Source: a virus | Lineage: Duplodnaviria; Heunggongvirae; Uroviricota; Caudoviricetes | Virus record (IMG/VR): IMGVR_UViG_2877948078_000002 | Strand: one strand, 5' to 3' | Length of the DNA: 46,331 bases | Shown here: positions 4,416 to 42,000 of the stretch, piece by piece | Layout of the letters: each line of letters begins with the position of its first letter | Position numbering within the stretch: the stretch's first letter is position 1 | The notes under the pieces: model-generated | What the model was told of the DNA's origin: nothing | The model's database searches: none | The model's input: only the letters and a program-made list of their open reading frames with translations | Made by a program: the position numbers and the translations under genes

Positions 4416-4600
4416 TGTGCACATCCTTTTGGCATCAGACGTAAACGAGCCAGCATTGAAACAATGCATATTTTATTTAATAGCTCCCGTTCTTGTTTTC
4501 TCTTGTTAATGGCATCTTCAGTAAATACAGGGTTACTGATAGTGACACCAATTTCAAAACAACCTTCAGACGTATTAACGTTTGGTAATAACGTTTTCAT
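4412..4600 (-). CDS. dicB: Cell-division inhibitor DicB (MinC-activating)
   Basis: 62-aa product MKTLLPNVNTSEGCFEIGVTISNPVFTEDAINKRKQERELLNKICIVSMLARLRLMPKGCAQ matches DicB as recalled in sequence and length; lies just downstream of dicF. Confidence 0.85.
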   Translation of the reverse strand: MKTLLPNVNTSEGCFEIGVTISNPVFTEDAINKRKQERELLNKICIVSMLARLRLMPKGCAQ

Positions 4601-6417: not shown

Positions 6418-6445
6418 TTGACTTAGGTATCCCGCGCACAATAAT
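6418..6445 (+). promoter_or_regulatory. Candidate sigma70 promoter for dicC (-35 TTGACT, about 16-17 nt spacer, -10 CATAAT/ATAATG) overlapping the operator
   Basis: TTGACT at 6418..6423, -10-like hexamer at 6440..6446, operator palindrome begins at 6445. Confidence 0.45.
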
Positions 6446-6703: not shown

Positions 6704-7208
6704 ACAGGCTCGTGAGGCTCTGGATGCCTGGATATGTCGACCAGGAATGACACAGGAGCAGGCGACGATATTAATCACTGAAGCATTCTGGGCTTTGAAA
6801 GAGCGCCCGAACATCGATGTTCAGCGTGTCACAGATGAAGGTGGCGCGGTTGATCAGCGAGCGCTTGGCGTTAATCGAGTGAAGATATTCGAACGCTGGA
6901 AGGCTATCGACACTAGGGATAAGCGTGAAAAGTTCACGGCGCTAGTGCCTGCAATTATGGAGGCTATCCGGATTAATGATTTCAGGTTGTATCGTGAAAT
7001 TAGTGACGGAAAAAGCATCACGTACATGATCGCCGGGTTAAACAAAGAATATGGCGATGTGGTGGAGTCCGGACTGCTTTTTGCTGATCCTGCCGTAGTG
7101 GATCGTGAAACTGACGAACTTATAGAAAAAGCAATTGCTTTCAAACTTGCGTATCGACTGCAATACCAACAAAAAGCTGGATGGAATTATGAGCCTTCTT
7201 TTTGCTGA
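6687..7208 (+). CDS. Hypothetical early protein immediately downstream of the cro-like gene (position of cII/YdaT-like regulators)
   Basis: 173-aa ORF overlapping the dicC end and the replication gene start; no motif I can assign with confidence. Confidence 0.55.
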   Translation: MKITPEQAREALDAWICRPGMTQEQATILITEAFWALKERPNIDVQRVTDEGGAVDQRALGVNRVKIFERWKAIDTRDKREKFTALVPAIMEAIRINDFRLYREISDGKSITYMIAGLNKEYGDVVESGLLFADPAVVDRETDELIEKAIAFKLAYRLQYQQKAGWNYEPSFC

Positions 7209-8154
7209 ACGCCCACTGGTTATAAACACACAGCTTGCGATGAAGATTGGCTTAAATGAAGCCATTGTGTTGCAGCAGTTGCATTACTGGTTGAGAGATA
7301 CCAATTCCGGCATGGAATGTGATGGTGTTCGCTGGATTTACAACACAACGGAACAATGGCTGGAACAGTTCCCATTCTGGTCAGAGTCAACGTTAAAGCG
7401 CGCGTTTGCAAGTCTGAAAACGCTGGGGCTTTTGCGTTGTGAAAAGCTCAATAAATCAAAGCGCGATATGACCAATTTCTACACGATCAACTATGGGAGC
7501 GAGCTTTTAGATGGTGGCAAATTGAACGAATCCATCGGTTCAAAATGCGCCGCTCCATCAGGTCAAAATGACACGATGGAAGAGGTCAAAATGAAACGCT
7601 CCATTGGTTCAAAACGACCCAATGTCATCGGGTCAAAATGGCCTGATGATCTTACAGAGAATACAACAGAGATTACTACAGAGAATAAAAACACTTTTCG
7701 TCCGGAAGCTTCGCAACCGGACCCGCAGACCGCTGAACAGGATTTTTTAACCCGGAACCCCGACGCGGTTGTGTTTAGTGCGAAAAAACGCCAGTGGGGT
7801 AGCAGGGAGGATTTGGCGTGTGCGCAGTGGATTTGGGGGCGGATCGTGAACCTTTACGAACAGGCTGCCAGCGACGATGGAGAGATCATGCGACCAAAAG
7901 AGCCTAACTGGACAGCCTGGGCCAATGACGTGCGCACAATGCGGATGCTGGATGGCAGAAGCCACAGACAAATTTGCGAAATGTTTGGTCGGGTACAGCG
8001 AGATCCATTCTGGGTAAAAAACATCATGAGCCCGTCAAAACTCCGCGAAAAATGGGACGAACTGGTCATCCGCTTGGGACGTTCACCTGTACAGCGTTGT
8101 GTGAATCATATTTCTGAACCGGATACAGAAATTCCGCCTGGTTTCAGGGGATAA
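7189..8154 (+). CDS. Replication initiator / replisome organizer (helix-turn-helix N-terminus, DnaT-like C-terminus); contains the iteron array
   Basis: About 320-aa product; N-terminal region resembles phage replisome organizers; internal SIGSK peptide repeats are encoded by the DNA iterons at 7531..7640, as in lambda O. Confidence 0.75.
   Translation: MSLLFAERPLVINTQLAMKIGLNEAIVLQQLHYWLRDTNSGMECDGVRWIYNTTEQWLEQFPFWSESTLKRAFASLKTLGLLRCEKLNKSKRDMTNFYTINYGSELLDGGKLNESIGSKCAAPSGQNDTMEEVKMKRSIGSKRPNVIGSKWPDDLTENTTEITTENKNTFRPEASQPDPQTAEQDFLTRNPDAVVFSAKKRQWGSREDLACAQWIWGRIVNLYEQAASDDGEIMRPKEPNWTAWANDVRTMRMLDGRSHRQICEMFGRVQRDPFWVKNIMSPSKLREKWDELVIRLGRSPVQRCVNHISEPDTEIPPGFRG
7531..7640. repeat. 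Iteron array (5 direct repeats of about 17 bp, tccatcGGTCAAAATG, period about 23-24 bp) followed by an AT-rich tract: putative origin of replication
   Basis: Repeats at 7531-7547, 7554-7570, 7579-7593, 7599-7616, 7624-7640; downstream 7641..7690 carries three ACAGAGAAT(T)A repeats and is AT-rich. Confidence 0.65.
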
Positions 8155-8194: not shown

Positions 8195-8617
8195 GTGGCA
8201 AAAGTTTTTACACAGGAAGAGCGGGAAAAAATTAAAGAGCAGGTGGTCGAACTTGTGCGCCAGAGCGGTCGCGAGACATTACGACAGTTGGAAGCTAAAA
8301 CAGGTGCGACAAGATATCTGATGAGCATTCTTGCCAGAGAGCTGGTTGCCAGTGGTTATGTATACAACTCCGGCTACGGGTTATTCCCGTCTGAACAGGC
8401 ACGAAAGGACTGGCAAAATGCCCGCAAAAAACTCTCTAGGGCGAAGGTGAAGAAACCCGCTGTGGTTGATCCGGACCTTATCTGGTCACTACCTGATGGA
8501 GAAATACGTCGCTACGACAGTCGTCTAAACATAATCTGTCGCGAGTGCCGGAAGAGCGAAGTTATGCAGCGCATATTGTCGTTTTATCAGGGAAATGTTC
8601 GGTATCTATTTAAGTGA
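8195..8617 (+). CDS. Hypothetical protein (140 aa), possible winged-helix DNA-binding protein
   Basis: GTG start with AAGGAGG Shine-Dalgarno 4 nt upstream; G+C content similar to phage backbone; sits between the replication gene and the AT-rich accessory locus. Confidence 0.6.
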   Translation: MAKVFTQEEREKIKEQVVELVRQSGRETLRQLEAKTGATRYLMSILARELVASGYVYNSGYGLFPSEQARKDWQNARKKLSRAKVKKPAVVDPDLIWSLPDGEIRRYDSRLNIICRECRKSEVMQRILSFYQGNVRYLFK

Positions 8618-8866
8618 CGAGATTAAAGTGCATTAGTTAAGATGTAAATTGACATTTTCATGGCATAGGGTAGAGGTAGCGTGGTTGTCTGCTTTGTGCC
8701 ATGAACTGATGTCGCTTGTGTGCGTGGCAATTAGTGTATAACGGATATCATCAGACTCCAGCAGTAGCATTGCTTGAGCATACTAACATATGAAATCTTT
8801 AGTTAACGTAAGATAAATTAGATTTAGTATTTTTTTGAGTATGAGCTCATAAATAATCAAAAAAAC

Positions 8867-8896
8867 TTGATACGCCATATGACTTTGATTTATTTT
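8867..8896 (+). promoter_or_regulatory. Candidate sigma70 promoter for the P-loop NTPase gene (TTGATA, 18 nt spacer, TATTTT)
   Basis: Hexamers at 8867..8872 and 8891..8896 within a roughly 300-bp very AT-rich intergenic region; by inspection only. Confidence 0.3.
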
Positions 8897-8934
8897 GGAA
8901 AAACATAAAGGTAATGTAATGTAAAGAGGAAAAT

Positions 8935-10422
8935 GTGGACATTAGAGACTGGCTACCAGAATTTCAAGTTTCAGCAGAAACAGATCGGGACTTACAGACC
9001 TATTTTTTTAAGCTACCGGCGATAAAGGATATTATTGAAAGTAGGGCTTGGTTGGTTCTTGGAAGAAAAGGTACTGGTAAAACAGCCATTTATGAACACC
9101 TTAGAAGAGGAAAACCAGCCAATCTCAACGGGTTTTACTCAGTATGTCTAAATTTTAGTGACTATCCATGGCCAGCCCATCAACTTTACAAGGATGCAAT
9201 GGCTGGAGAACTTTCCGCTTATCAAAAAAGTTGGATGTATCTTTTTTATATTAAGGCATTATCTAAACTTATTGAAATAAAAAATGATGCTGGAGAGACT
9301 TTAAACAAAGATCTAACGTGGGCACATAATTATATCAAAACTATCTTTGGTAGTCCCGACCCAACTCTTAGGGAGGTTTTGTTTTCAAAAATAACTAGAT
9401 TAAAAACCATAAAAGGGCCCAGTGCTGGTCTTAATGAAGTATCATTGGACGCAGGTGAAATTTCGTTAGAGGAAGTTGCTGAGAATGCTCAGCTAAAGCA
9501 AAAGCTAAGAGCTAATGCTTTCACATTGCTTACGTATTTTGAAAAAATTTTTAAAGATAACATTGGTAATGAAAAAATAATTATCGCCCTTGACCAATTA
9601 GACGAAAACTGGCTAGAGGGGCAAATTGAAGAATATAGTAAGGTTTTAATAAATCTGCTAAATGTCTGTAGAAACATAGCATCTGATGAACGCCTCAATG
9701 ATAAATTAAAAGTCATTCCCTTCCTACGAACGGATATTTATCATTCTTTGAAATTCAATGATAAAAACAAATTATTGCAAGATAGTGCTATCATAATCTC
9801 ATGGAATGAAAATAATCTAAACGATATGTATTATGAGAGGATAAAGAAATACAAACCTAATGATCTCATATTAGATGACGAAAAGGACAGATCTGGGAAA
9901 GTATTTGAGGTTTCATTCGTTAGGCAGGGGACTCCTCCATTTAAATATATATGTCGCCGTTCTTTCTTTAGGCCTAGGGATATTATTGTCTACTTCAACA
10001 AAATTAGGGCATGTCATAAAAATAATGTCTCAGGTCTTTACACTTCCAATGAGCTTTATGAAGCTGACCGTGAAGCATCTATAAGTGTGTACAATGAGGT
10101 GATTGATGAATGGTCCAACCAATTCCCTGAAATTGAGAACTTACTAACTGTTCTTCAAACTATCCAAGTAGAAACATTCGATTTTAATGATTTCTCCGAG
10201 AAGTGCCGTAATGAATTTGCAGGTATTTCTGATGGGGTGATACGTCAATATATCAACTTCCTGTTTGATAACTCACTTATCGGACAAAAAAAACAAGGTA
10301 GATGGGAATACGTAAGTAGTTTGCCTAACTTAAAAATTAATCTACAAAATGAGTTTAGGACACATCATGCTTTAAAATACAGGTTGCATTTAATAGAAAG
10401 CAGACCGAGCCAAAATATTTAG
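8935..10422 (+). CDS. Uncharacterized P-loop NTPase (495 aa): Walker A GRKGTGKT at residues 43-50, Walker B-like IIIALDQLDE at 215-224, uncharacterized C-terminal half of about 270 aa; candidate defence or exclusion gene
   Basis: GTG start with AAGAGGA Shine-Dalgarno; gene and upstream region visibly AT-rich compared with flanking phage genes (estimate by eye, roughly 35-40% versus about 50% G+C); occupies the slot that holds relBE next to hokD in K-12 Qin as recalled. Confidence 0.85.
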   Translation: MDIRDWLPEFQVSAETDRDLQTYFFKLPAIKDIIESRAWLVLGRKGTGKTAIYEHLRRGKPANLNGFYSVCLNFSDYPWPAHQLYKDAMAGELSAYQKSWMYLFYIKALSKLIEIKNDAGETLNKDLTWAHNYIKTIFGSPDPTLREVLFSKITRLKTIKGPSAGLNEVSLDAGEISLEEVAENAQLKQKLRANAFTLLTYFEKIFKDNIGNEKIIIALDQLDENWLEGQIEEYSKVLINLLNVCRNIASDERLNDKLKVIPFLRTDIYHSLKFNDKNKLLQDSAIIISWNENNLNDMYYERIKKYKPNDLILDDEKDRSGKVFEVSFVRQGTPPFKYICRRSFFRPRDIIVYFNKIRACHKNNVSGLYTSNELYEADREASISVYNEVIDEWSNQFPEIENLLTVLQTIQVETFDFNDFSEKCRNEFAGISDGVIRQYINFLFDNSLIGQKKQGRWEYVSSLPNLKINLQNEFRTHHALKYRLHLIESRPSQNI

Positions 10423-34967: not shown

Positions 34968-38369
<3,402 letters not shown>

Positions 38370-39099: not shown

Positions 39100-42000
39100 A
39101 TGGCAGTAAAAATTTCAGGTGTACTGAAAGACGGCACAGGAAAACCGGTACAGAACTGCACAATCCAGCTGAAAGCAAAACGTAACAGCACCACGGTGGT
39201 GGTGAACACGCTGGCCTCAGAAAATCCGGATGAAGCCGGGCGTTACAGCATGGACGTTGAGTACGGTCAGTACAGCGTTATTCTGTTGGTGGAAGGATTC
39301 CCGCCGTCACATGCCGGGACCATCACCGTGTATGAAGATTCCCGACCCGGTACGCTGAATGATTTTCTCGGTGCCATGACGGAGGATGATGCCCGTCCGG
39401 AGGCACTGCGCCGTTTTGAGCTGATGGTGGAAGAGGTGGCGCGTAACGCGTCCGCGGTGGCACAGAACACGGCAGCCGCGAAGAAGTCAGCCAGTGATGC
39501 CGGCACATCTGCCAGTGAGGCGGCAACCCATGCGACTGATGCTGCAGGCTCAGCGCGTGCAGCCAGCACGTCAGCCGGACAGGCCGCGACGTCGGCTCAG
39601 GAGGCGTCTTCCAGCGCAGGAACAGCATCAACAAAGGCCACAGAAGCATCAAAAAGTGCTGCCGCTGCAGAGTCCTCAAAAAGCGCGGCGGCCACCAGTG
39701 CCGGTGCCGCGAAAACGTCAGAAACGAATGCTGCAGCGTCACAAAAATCAGCAGCCACTTCTGCATCCACTGCGACGACGAAAGCGTCAGAAGCCGCCAC
39801 TTCAGCCAGAGATGCGGCGGCCTCCAAAGAGGCGGCAAAATCATCAGAAACGAACGCCTCCACAAGCGCCAGCAGTGCAGCCTCCTCGGCAACGGCGGCA
39901 GGAAATTCCGTGAAGGCGGCAAAAACGTCCGAGACGAATGCTAAGTCTTCTGAAACGGCAGCGGAACAGAGCGCCTCAGCTGCGGCAGACTCTGAGACAG
40001 CAGCTGCATCATCGGCCCGTGAGGCGTCCATTAAGGCAGAGGAGGCAGCAGTCAGTGCCACCGCCGCCGGAAAATCGGCAGAAAGCGCCGCATCATCCGC
40101 TTCAACAGCCACAACGAAGGCTGGCGAAGCCACTGAACAGGCCAGCGCAGCAGCGAGGTCTGCTTCCGCAGCGAAGACATCCGAAACGAACGCGAAAGCG
40201 TCGGAAACCAGCGCAGAATCCTCAAAAACGGCTGCCGCATCGTCCGCCAGTTCGGCGGCGTCATCGGCATCATCTGCGTCTGCTTCAAAAGATGAGGCGA
40301 CCAGACAGGCGTCAGCAGCGAAGGGCAGCGCCACGACAGCATCCACGAAGGCGACAGAGGCAGCTGGCAGTGCGACGGCGGCAGCACAGAGCAAAAGTAC
40401 GGCGGAATCCGCGGCAACGCGCGCCGAGACAGCAGCTAAACGGGCAGAGGATATTGCATCCGCCGTGGCGCTTGAGGATGCAAGTACGACGAAAAAGGGG
40501 ATAGTACAGCTCAGCAGTGCGACCAACAGTACGTCTGAAACGCTGGCGGCAACGCCAAAGGCAGTAAAATCAGCCTATGACAATGCAGAGAAACGTCTGC
40601 AGAAAGACCAGAACGGCGCTGATATACCCGATAAGGGACGCTTCCTGAACAACATTAACGCGGTCAGTAAAACAGACTTTGCTGATAAGCGTGGTATGCG
40701 TTATGTGCGGGTTAACGCTCCTGCAGGTGCAACATCTGGAAAATATTACCCTGTTGTTGTTATGCGTTCTGCTGGCTCAGTAAGCGAACTGGCATCAAGG
40801 GTCATTATCACCACGGCACCGCGAACCGCAGGCGATCCGATGAATAACTGCGAGTTTAACGGATTTGTTATGCCTGGTGGCTGGACTGACAGGGGGCGTT
40901 ATGCTTATGGAATGTTCTGGCAATATCAAAACAATGAACGAGCCATCCACTCAATAATGATGAGTAATAAGGGCGATGATTTGCGCTCTGTGTTCTATGT
41001 TGATGGCGCTGCTTTCCCTGTTTTTGCGTTTATCGAAGATGGCCTGTCAATATCCGCACCTGGTGCTGATCTCGTTGTTAATGATACGACCTATAAGTTT
41101 GGGGCAACAAATCCAGCGACTGAATGTATCGCGGCGGACGTTATCCTTGATTTTAAGAGTGGGCGTGGTTTTTATGAGTCTCATTCGTTAATCGTTAACG
41201 ATAACTTGTCGTGCAAAAAACTTTTTGCCACAGACGAAATTGTAGCGCGTGGTGGTAATCAGATTCGAATGATAGGTGGGGAGTATGGTGCATTATGGCG
41301 TAATGATGGCGCTAAAACTTACCTGCTGCTTACCAATCAAGGTGATGTTTATGGTGGCTGGAATACATTAAGACCGTTTGCTATTGATAACGCAACCGGC
41401 GAACTGGTTATTGGAACCAAACTGTCCGCAAGTCTGAACGGTAATGCATTAACAGCAACAAAGCTGCAAACGCCAAGACTGGTTTCTGGTGTTGAGTTTG
41501 ATGGTTCCAAAGATATTACTTTAACCGCCGCGCATGTGGCTGCTTTTGCCAGAAGGGCAACGGATACATATGCCGATGCGGATGGTGGCGTTCCCTGGAA
41601 TGCCGAATCAGGCGCTTACAATGTCACCCGCTCTGGCAACAGCTATATTCTGGTTAACTTCTATACCGGAGTCGGAAGTTGCCGGACATTGCAGATGAAG
41701 GCGCATTACAGAAATGGAGGTCTGTTCTACCGTTCCTCAAGAGATGGCTATGGTTTTGAAGAAGACTGGGCAGAAGTTTATACCTCGAAAAATCTTCCAC
41801 CAGAAAGCTACCCAGTCGGTGCACCAATCCCGTGGCCATCAGATACCGTTCCGTCTGGTTATGCCCTGATGCAGGGGCAGACTTTTGACAAATCTGCTTA
41901 CCCGAAACTTGCAGCCGCTTATCCGTCAGGCGTGATCCCTGATATGCGTGGCTGGACGATTAAGGGCAAACCTGCCAGTGGTCGAGCCGTATTATCTCAG

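Follow-up and report, generated by a model that had tools for sequence, protein, structure and literature searches.

How does a lambdoid prophage that encodes a single O-type initiator, and no recognizable helicase loader, start the replication of its DNA? The question is raised by a stretch of 46,331 nt from a virus of the Caudoviricetes (IMG/VR record IMGVR_UViG_2877948078_000002; the whole stretch is hereafter called the window). Its initiator gene (7189..8154, forward strand) encodes a 321-aa protein that the Prokaryotic Genome Annotation Pipeline (PGAP) lists as 'hypothetical protein' WP_000054493.1 and that matches phrog_391, 'replication initiation O-like' (E 2.8e-93). The middle of this gene holds five iterons, at 7533-7648, followed by three tandem 12-nt units. 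We consider it likely, with a probability of roughly 80%, that iterons and 12-mers together make up the origin from which an intact Qin-like lambdoid prophage replicates vegetatively, a replication function that we infer from the sequence and its comparison with relatives. An origin lying within its initiator gene is in itself an ordinary arrangement of a known kind. What we describe is a loader-less variant of it, and the features in which it varies are an N-terminal domain family without a Pfam model, a 12-mer array found across phyla, the lack of a loader gene and a C-terminal tail copied from the host protein DnaT.

The five iterons start at 7533, 7556, 7579, 7602 and 7626, giving a spacing of 23/23/23/24, and their consensus is CATCGGGTCA-AAA-TGACCCGATG, i.e. 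two perfect 10-bp inverted arms around AAA. A first-pass annotation of this DNA had reported five 17-bp direct repeats spaced by 23-24 bp inside the initiator open reading frame (ORF); their number, spacing and location hold, whereas the unit is better described as a 23-bp near-palindrome. Iterons 2 (CATCAGGTCAAAATGACACGATG, 7556..7578), 4 (CATTGGTTCAAAACGACCCAATG, 7602..7624) and 5 (CATCGGGTCAAAATGGCCTGATG, 7626..7648) are the palindromic copies, self-complementary at 16 of 23 positions when both members of each pair are counted. Iterons 1 (CATCGGTTCAAAATGCGCCGCTC, 7533..7555) and 3 (GAAGAGGTCAAAATGAAACGCTC, 7579..7601) are half-degenerate palindromes, the former with a degenerate right arm and the latter the most diverged copy of all. 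Three independent tools recovered the repeats: a repeat search gave the five iterons and the three 12-mers, Tandem Repeats Finder reported arrays of 23 nt at 7531-7604 and of 12 nt at 7654-7687, and a lag-autocorrelation scan found lag 23 at about 7500-7620 to be the strongest periodicity of the window. The global maximum of a partner-count scan also coincides with the iteron positions. Neither Tandem Repeats Finder nor the two scans revealed a second comparable repeat cluster in the 46 kb. A 15-nt pattern, CATCGGGTCAAAATG, searched with up to 3 mismatches, gave 9 matches where 1.96 were expected, and 9 was reached by 0 of 100 shuffles; four of the nine are the clustered iterons, iteron 3 being too diverged to be among them. 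The peptides read from iterons 1 to 5 are SIGSK, PSGQND, EEVKMK, SIGSK and VIGSK, so that the SIGSK peptide previously ascribed to the repeats in general applies to copies 1, 4 and 5 and not to copies 2 and 3. All three reading frames are used, since 23 is not a multiple of 3, and this spread over frames argues that the iterons are kept as DNA rather than as peptide.

Some further observations concern the array itself. A GATC lies exactly at the junction between iteron 5 and the 12-mers (7648-7651), and several homologs carry a GATC at the same junction. No DnaA box was found inside the initiator gene; a perfect DnaA-box-like sequence, TTTTACACA, occurs at 8206-8214, at the start of the next gene. 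There are also natural initiator variants of 290 aa, which lack exactly 31 aa, or 93 nt (7533-7625), corresponding to iterons 1-4. Deletions between iterons are known from lambda ori mutants, and the 93-nt deletion looks like the product of recombination between iterons 1 and 5, probably marking prophages with a defective origin.

The iterons are followed by the three 12-nt units TACAGAGAATAC, AACAGAGATTAC and TACAGAGAATAA (7653..7690, forward strand), detected by repeat search and by Tandem Repeats Finder, with the unit consensus (T/A)ACAGAGAWTAC. They coincide with the least stable 40-nt duplex of the gene, at 7651-7691, where dG is -45.6 kcal/mol as against a gene mean of -56.5 (standard deviation 3.6), i.e. 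about 3 standard deviations off. The array lies at the place of lambda's A-rich region and is presumed to be an unwinding or helicase-entry element. The motif recurs in relatives: 2-5 tandem 12-mers follow the iterons in 32 of 76 loci scanned, including prophages of Geobacillus and Anoxybacillus. In the T-E-x-T repeats that they encode, ACA is used for the first Thr in 62 of 62 cases, as against 19% in the rest of these ORFs, and GAG for Glu in 62 of 62, as against 51%. Because these codons are fixed from Enterobacterales to Geobacillus, a constraint acting on the DNA can be argued. A 40-nt stretch is moreover shared, at 97.5% identity, with Stx-phage O genes that are unrelated on either side of it, and a 23-nt pattern, ACAGAGAWTACWACAGAGAWTAC, was found in at least 120 IMG/VR contigs, in genes that fall into three N-terminal classes without BLAST similarity to one another; by our estimate, essentially no chance occurrence is expected for about 20 specified bases. 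As for what reads the array, the candidates are intrinsic melting, a strand-specific contact, or an entry signal for helicase or primase. We also considered the 12-mers as a mere recombination junction between modules. This would leave the identity with Geobacillus prophages unexplained, and may be an additional role. A literature search with the motif sequences (ACAGAGAATAC, TENTTE) returned no mention of the 12-mer.

If the iterons are an origin, one would expect them to persist in homologous initiators. An IMG/VR search with the single N-domain gave only loci 99-100% identical to this one, with minor iteron polymorphism. An alignment of 19 diverse N-domains was used to fetch 80 loci from GTDB species-representative genomes (Enterobacterales, Pseudomonas, Comamonas, Moraxella, Bacillus, Geobacillus, Anoxybacillus, Staphylococcus and lactobacilli), 75 of them usable; the 310 nt after the N-domain were compared with 1261 background windows from the same loci. 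A repeat family of at least four copies follows the N-domain in 39 of the 75 loci (52%), as against 19 of the 1261 background windows (1.5%), and one of at least three copies in 77% as against 11%. The spacings of the arrays peak at 23 (69 cases), then at 22, 24, 21, 42 and 46, and in about 38 of 76 loci scanned no other repeat family of the 6-kb locus is as strong as the array after the N-domain. Arrays spaced by 21-24 bp directly after the N-domain are thus present in most homologs across phyla, and the layout is conserved throughout the family whether or not a loader is encoded. The units in homologs are palindromes of 21-23 bp with a CAAWWTG centre in 48 of 58 arrays and lineage-specific arms, for example GATGAGGGCAAATTGCCCTCATC (Pantoea), GATAAGGACAATTTGTCCCAATC (Mixta), CGACTGTTCAAAATGAACAGTCG (Anoxybacillus) and AATTACCCAAAATGGGTAAAT (Moraxella). 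Phages Klebsiella ST147-VIM1phi7.2, Providencia PSTCR8lys and Erwinia PEp14 carry an array at the same place with other sequences, spaced by 23/24 bp or the double; across homologs, position and spacing are kept and the peptides read from the arrays differ entirely. In the Klebsiella phage, N-domain and GGTCAAA iterons are shared with the present phage and the C-domain is a different one (Phg_2220_C), while phage SfII shares the C-domain and has an HTH_36 N-domain with repeats spaced by 15 bp. From these mosaics it follows that it is the N-domain, rather than the C-domain, with which the iterons are exchanged.

Initiators of other classes follow the same plan with different parts: Evi (2381-2463 of its locus) has GTCACGAAATGTCACG repeats and then three 12-nt units ACAGATAAAGAT, and SfII (2344-2466 of its locus) has six TCAAAATCTGAC units spaced by 15 nt. 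A few of the database matches are probable assembly contaminants, namely E. coli prophage sequence 98-100% identical to the window in metagenome-assembled genomes labelled Veillonella parvula, Bacillota bacterium and Collinsella, and 41,200-nt contigs filed under both Nocardioides sp. and Micromonospora sp., which match in initiator, iteron array and spacing and have an iteron core like that of Staphylococcus phages.

The initiator has 4296 database relatives, almost all of them named 'hypothetical protein'. In Pfam, the whole protein matches no family at E<=0.01, and its N- and C-terminal halves give nothing useful even at E<=10; against NCBIfam and PDB sequences, only the DnaT-like tail was matched. 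An AlphaFold2 (AF2) model built from a shallow alignment, with a mean predicted local distance difference test (pLDDT) score of 56.7, was used solely for domain boundaries and the winged-helix call. It suggests an N-terminal winged-helix domain (aa 1-113, 7189..7527, forward strand), presumably the iteron-binding module, in which aa 8-85 have the typical helix/strand pattern at pLDDT 60-78. The family of this domain comprises 10,315 cluster representatives at E<=0.001, and phages of Staphylococcus and Bacillus have relatives of it that carry a DnaD-like annotation. The best Foldseek matches in PDB are the N-terminal domains of RepA_N-type plasmid Rep proteins, 4pql and 5kbj (the latter a Rep-DNA complex), with E 6e-3 and 2e-2 and a TM score of about 0.55 on the target, weak matches from a model of moderate confidence; most of the others are winged helix-turn-helix DNA-binding proteins. 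A linker follows (aa 110-175) that is predicted to be disordered, with pLDDT below 30, and it is within this linker that the iterons and 12-mers encode aa 115-168. The C-terminal helical domain (aa 183-296, 7735..8076, forward strand; pLDDT 66-85) is homologous to that of lambda O: by BLASTP, aa 147-294 align with lambda O 135-270 at 34% identity over 148 residues (E 5e-28), and the alignment begins right after the iterons in both proteins. Residues 298-321 are again predicted to be disordered.

The resemblance to lambda extends to the origin. As a positive control, the same repeat search recovered the four annotated lambda iterons with their spacing of 20/24/23. These begin 348 nt into gene O (codon ~117), as compared with 344 nt (codon 115) here, bearing out the lambda-like placing of the origin that the first-pass annotation had recognized. 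Both origins consist of dyad-symmetric iterons spaced by about 23 bp and then a least stable, A-rich segment, both lie in a cI/cro/cII-like early operon, and the two initiators have homologous C-terminal domains. The iteron centre is TCAAAATGA here and a similar TCAAAACGA in lambda, whose iteron, ATCCCTCAAAACGAGGGAT, has the same plan with arms around TCAAAAYGA. Unlike in lambda, there are five iterons of 23 bp instead of four of 18-19 bp, the presumed unwinding segment is a conserved 12-mer array instead of an A-rich tract, the N-domain is not Phage_rep_O, there is no P gene, and a DnaT-like tail has been added. The location of lambda ori inside gene O, the O-some and O/P system, and the variants of Stx phages have been described (PMC7466680).

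Other systems share parts of the design. In pSK41 Rep, the Rep boxes are central in its own gene and the linker is encoded by the origin (PMC5703833). Such RepA_N initiators resemble ours in layout, with an N-domain of about 110-120 aa, an ori-encoded linker and a helical C-domain, and the central repeats are bound by the N-domain in pSK41 Rep, as is predicted here. In contrast to the RepA_N and DnaD-like organizers, the C-domain is lambda-O-like, the N-domain matches neither Pfam RepA_N nor DnaD_N at E<=10, and the host is a gamma-proteobacterium, without DnaD, DnaB(Bsu) or DnaI. The 12-mers recall the 13-mers of the oriC DNA unwinding element and the iteron plasmids, in which short tandem repeats also occupy a low-stability segment beside the initiator sites, but they differ from the 13-mers in their 12-nt period and in that ACAGAGAWTAC is purine-rich on the coding strand and moderately AT-rich. 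Sequence-specific binding to ssDNA (DNA as a single strand) is reported for Rep proteins of iteron plasmids (PMC4081077); a cognate contact of this type is less obvious here because the 12-mers are common to initiators with unrelated N- and C-domains. Finally, according to a 2025 survey (Genome Res, PMC12315714), phage LLS and 34 of 314 lambdoid phages have an O gene only, and their replication 'is not yet understood'. The present phage resembles these modules in having a single O-type gene and no helicase or loader. The passages of that paper that were consulted mention neither iterons, nor a 12-mer array, nor a DnaT-like tail, and a search of the paper for 'DnaT' gave no match; the term 'initiator-solo' was found in no paper in our literature search.

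In keeping with the earlier remark that no DnaC/P-like loader gene is evident, none was found in the window: as far as window position ~28,700, the PGAP annotation of the prophage is free of P-, DnaC- and DnaB-like genes, and six-frame ORFs of the whole window gave no credible match to a DnaC/DnaB/P panel, the only alignment being one of 45 aa with E 0.002. What the initiator does have is a C-terminal tail, VQRCVNHISEPDTEIPPGFRG (8089..8151, forward strand), which by phmmer against the PDB DnaT chains 2ru8, 6aep and 9zbt closely matches the 21 residues with which E. coli DnaT ends. It is about 70% identical to these, with the terminal IPPGFRG identical, and the conserved DnaT end ...SEPDxxIPPGFRG is present as VNHISEPDTEIPPGFRG. 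The resemblance goes no further. The NCBIfam DnaT model NF002770 scores 16.3 bits, compared with a cut-off of 201, and is matched at positions 160-179 of 179 only; neither NCBIfam nor phmmer detected the N-terminal oligomerization domain, the acidic linker or the three-helix ssDNA-binding bundle of DnaT. The DnaT-like C-terminal domain proposed at first is hence a tail and not a domain. As regards DnaT itself, removal of residues 154-179 weakened cooperative ssDNA binding in one study, and a literature search with the tail motif (PGFRG/PAGFRG) gave nothing relevant. The initiators of SfII, Evi, POCJ13 and the Klebsiella phage, whose domains are unrelated, likewise end in [IV]PxGFR[GS]; lambda O, Stx O and the PEp14 and Providencia proteins do not. 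Between tail-bearing genes that are otherwise unrelated, the last 60 nt are 90-98% identical. The DnaT-like ending is, on this sequence comparison, a portable module carried by initiators with unrelated domains.

Our survey suggests in addition that the tail and phage-encoded loaders tend not to occur together. In 101 initiators made non-redundant at 90% identity, 93 loci had at least 1.5 kb of downstream sequence, and the first downstream ORFs were compared with Pfam. The 53 ORFs of tail-bearing loci included 0 DnaB_C, 1 IstB/DnaC-like (that of POCJ13) and 0 lambda-P matches; the 128 ORFs of tail-less loci included 22, 21 and 2, respectively. A loader or helicase thus lies downstream in 1 of 24 tail-bearing as opposed to 34 of 69 tail-less loci (Fisher p 4.8e-5), and within the Enterobacterales/Pseudomonas subset in 1 of 15 as opposed to 8 of 18 (p 0.02). 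The idea put forward at first, that loader recruitment may rely on the DnaT-like end, gains comparative support from this association and is still a suggestion.

The host element is an intact Qin-like lambdoid prophage of E. coli. The 2.3 kb around the origin agree at 99.9% identity with a prophage in E. coli NRG 857C that adjoins rspB and ynfA, which is the Qin locus; of 5426 complete E. coli genomes, 1384 hold at least 80% of this module. In the NRG 857C prophage, genes for integrase, excisionase, exonuclease, dicB, a repressor like cI, a cro/DicC-like protein and YdaT (cII-like) are annotated before the initiator, with the early genes in the order cI (reverse strand)/cro/YdaT-cII-like/initiator; DUF977, a Sll1717-type ATPase, hokD, rem and a Q-like antiterminator are annotated after it, and then lysis, terminase, portal, capsid and tail genes; csp genes are annotated as well. 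A pR-like sigma-70 promoter (TTGACT-16-AATAAT; 6418..6445, forward strand) is predicted upstream of cro from a consensus match at 10 of 12 positions, and rightward transcription from it would cross the origin. The YdaT-like gene overlaps the initiator by 20 nt (7189-7208), and some database entries are 448-aa fusions of the two, probably frameshifts or gene-calling artefacts. Directly 3' of the initiator lies a 140-aa gene (8195..8617, forward strand) that belongs to DUF977 (PF06163, E 9.1e-29) and to the Ren-like phrog_142 ('Ren-like exclusion protein') and is no recognizable loader. In Pantoea-type prophages, what comes after the tail-bearing initiator is instead a gene for a PerC-like protein of about 144 aa (phrog_1324, 'transcriptional activator') and then one for a ParB-like protein of about 450 aa (phrog_1033), a conserved trio whose PerC-like and ParB-like members have no known replication role.

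Other features of the window are less closely connected with the origin. A low-GC island (8640-10422, GC 0.22-0.40) between the replication module and hokD encodes a P-loop ATPase of 495 aa from the Sll1717 family (NF047389, E 3.8e-74; phrog_13260) that looks like a moron or defence cargo; in the deposited genome of phage mEp460_ev081, another gene takes its place. Small tandem repeats occur at 19751-19785, 18750-18791, 37896-37938 and 4572-4596, with periods of 8 nt x 4.2 (GTCAGGCT), 21 nt x 2, 19 nt x 2.3 and 13 nt x 1.9, and a 21-nt periodicity at about 2481-2620 and 40161-40290 is probably due to peptide repeats in exonuclease and tail genes.

Several other explanations of these data can be weighed against a functional origin. 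That the repeats are a by-product of a repeated linker peptide, with no function as DNA, would fit the (S)IGSK peptides of iterons 1, 4 and 5 and the T-E-N/I-T always read from the 12-mers. It is scarcely tenable, however, given that the 23-nt period puts iterons 2 and 3 in other frames, that the units are palindromes, that homologous arrays keep spacing and position while their peptides change completely, and that the segment encoded is predicted to be disordered; being contradicted also by the invariant ACA and GAG codons, this reading was rejected. A subtler possibility is that the iterons are genuine initiator sites that serve mainly in autoregulation, copy control or the exclusion of related phages, replication starting elsewhere or by recombination-dependent restart with no defined origin. 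Iterons of plasmids do have further roles in handcuffing and autorepression, the DnaT-like tail hints at the restart machinery, and O-only lambdoid phages are described as not understood (PMC12315714). Yet the array abuts the least stable duplex and the conserved 12-mers just as in lambda's origin, it is the only repeat cluster of its kind in the window, and the layout is kept family-wide with or without an encoded loader, all of which makes a mainly regulatory array quite improbable.

Nor is the origin likely to be a non-firing relic in a defective prophage like the Qin of E. coli K-12, despite the location of the prophage at the Qin locus by rspB and ynfA, the presence of dicB, hokD, rem and csp genes, and the existence of natural variants with four of the five iterons deleted. 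The gene is full length with all five iterons, and it is 99.3% identical to that of the plaque-forming relative mEp460_ev081, with 7 nucleotide differences of which 1 is in an iteron, in agreement with the first-pass view that the origin is intact; integrase, excisionase, terminase, portal, capsid and tail genes are all annotated, and the module is common among complete E. coli genomes. One could also presume that the small protein encoded downstream (DUF977 here, a PerC-like one in relatives) acts as a helicase loader or adaptor of a new type and that the tail is irrelevant to loading. Small loaders such as phage P2 B exist, and a gene of about 140 aa directly follows the initiator in 22 of 24 tail-bearing loci. 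We judge this unlikely as well: DUF977 falls in a Ren-like PHROG and lambda ren occupies the same post-replication position, POCJ13 has a gene that by annotation carries the phrog_142 product name 'Ren-like exclusion protein' downstream of its DnaC-like loader, the PerC-like genes match 'transcriptional activator' families, and the DUF977 and PerC-like proteins do not cluster with each other by BLAST (E<=1e-6).

An active origin with a tail-mediated link to the host remains our preferred reading, and a number of points weigh against it. Binding, unwinding and autonomous replication are all steps that we infer. Phage_rep_O (PF04492), one of the two models that the first-pass annotation had named, does not match the initiator even at E<=10, while lambda O scored 5.7e-36 in the same run; the other, DnaT, is matched only at its end, as described above. 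The C-domain of lambda O binds P, and the present phage has a lambda-O-like C-domain with no P to bind. The AF2 model is of low overall confidence, as reflected by its mean pLDDT, and the fold matches drawn from it are weak (E 6e-3). The 12-mer array has an A+T content of only about 63%, so that of the AT-rich tract with three repeats reported at first, the three repeats and the low duplex stability are confirmed and the AT-richness is not. A single reading frame, giving TExT (T-E-N/I-T), is used in the 12-mers throughout, and a role at the level of the peptide is thus still conceivable. Concerning the tail, the association with missing loaders is confounded by host taxonomy, POCJ13 is an exception in having both the tail and a DnaC-like gene, and the papers on DnaT that were consulted, including preprimosome structures of 2026, do not state a binding partner for the last ~20 residues. 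The tail was also scored by a regular expression that missed variant tails; as several loci scored as tail-less and loader-less carry such variants, the true association is therefore stronger.

Taken as an origin, the locus might work in the following manner. The initiator would be made from the pR-like early operon, and dimers of its N-domain would bind the iterons and build an O-some-like complex. This complex, together with transcription through the region, may melt the adjacent 12-mer array, at which host DnaB helicase would then be loaded. Since no protein of the P, DnaC or DnaB type is encoded by the prophage, the helicase must be loaded by way of host factors, and the likeliest handle for these would be the C-terminal tail of the initiator. 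Because it copies the conserved end of DnaT, the tail would link the initiator to whatever partner the tail of DnaT has, and in this way could connect it to the host PriA/PriB/DnaT-DnaB/DnaC pathway, a role for which the comparative data speak. More tentatively, and with the odds somewhat against it, one may go further and propose both that D-x-x-[IV]-P-x-G-F-R-G is a portable docking motif copied from host DnaT (onto PriA/PriB, DnaC or DnaB) and that the 12-mer array is an undescribed cross-phylum origin element, conserved at the DNA level and independent of the initiator.

If this is true, the docking motif would explain how O-only phages load DnaB and would reveal a function for the tail of DnaT, and the 12-mer array would serve unwinding or helicase entry independently of the initiator. 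For a very common initiator family that is annotated as hypothetical and has no Pfam model, there is now an origin, a domain map and a family-wide grammar of iterons. The tail copied from DnaT and its strong negative association with phage-encoded loaders make the replication of O-only phages (PMC12315714) experimentally approachable, and the 12-mer array, conserved nucleotide for nucleotide from prophages of Enterobacterales to those of Bacillota, is a candidate for a general origin element.

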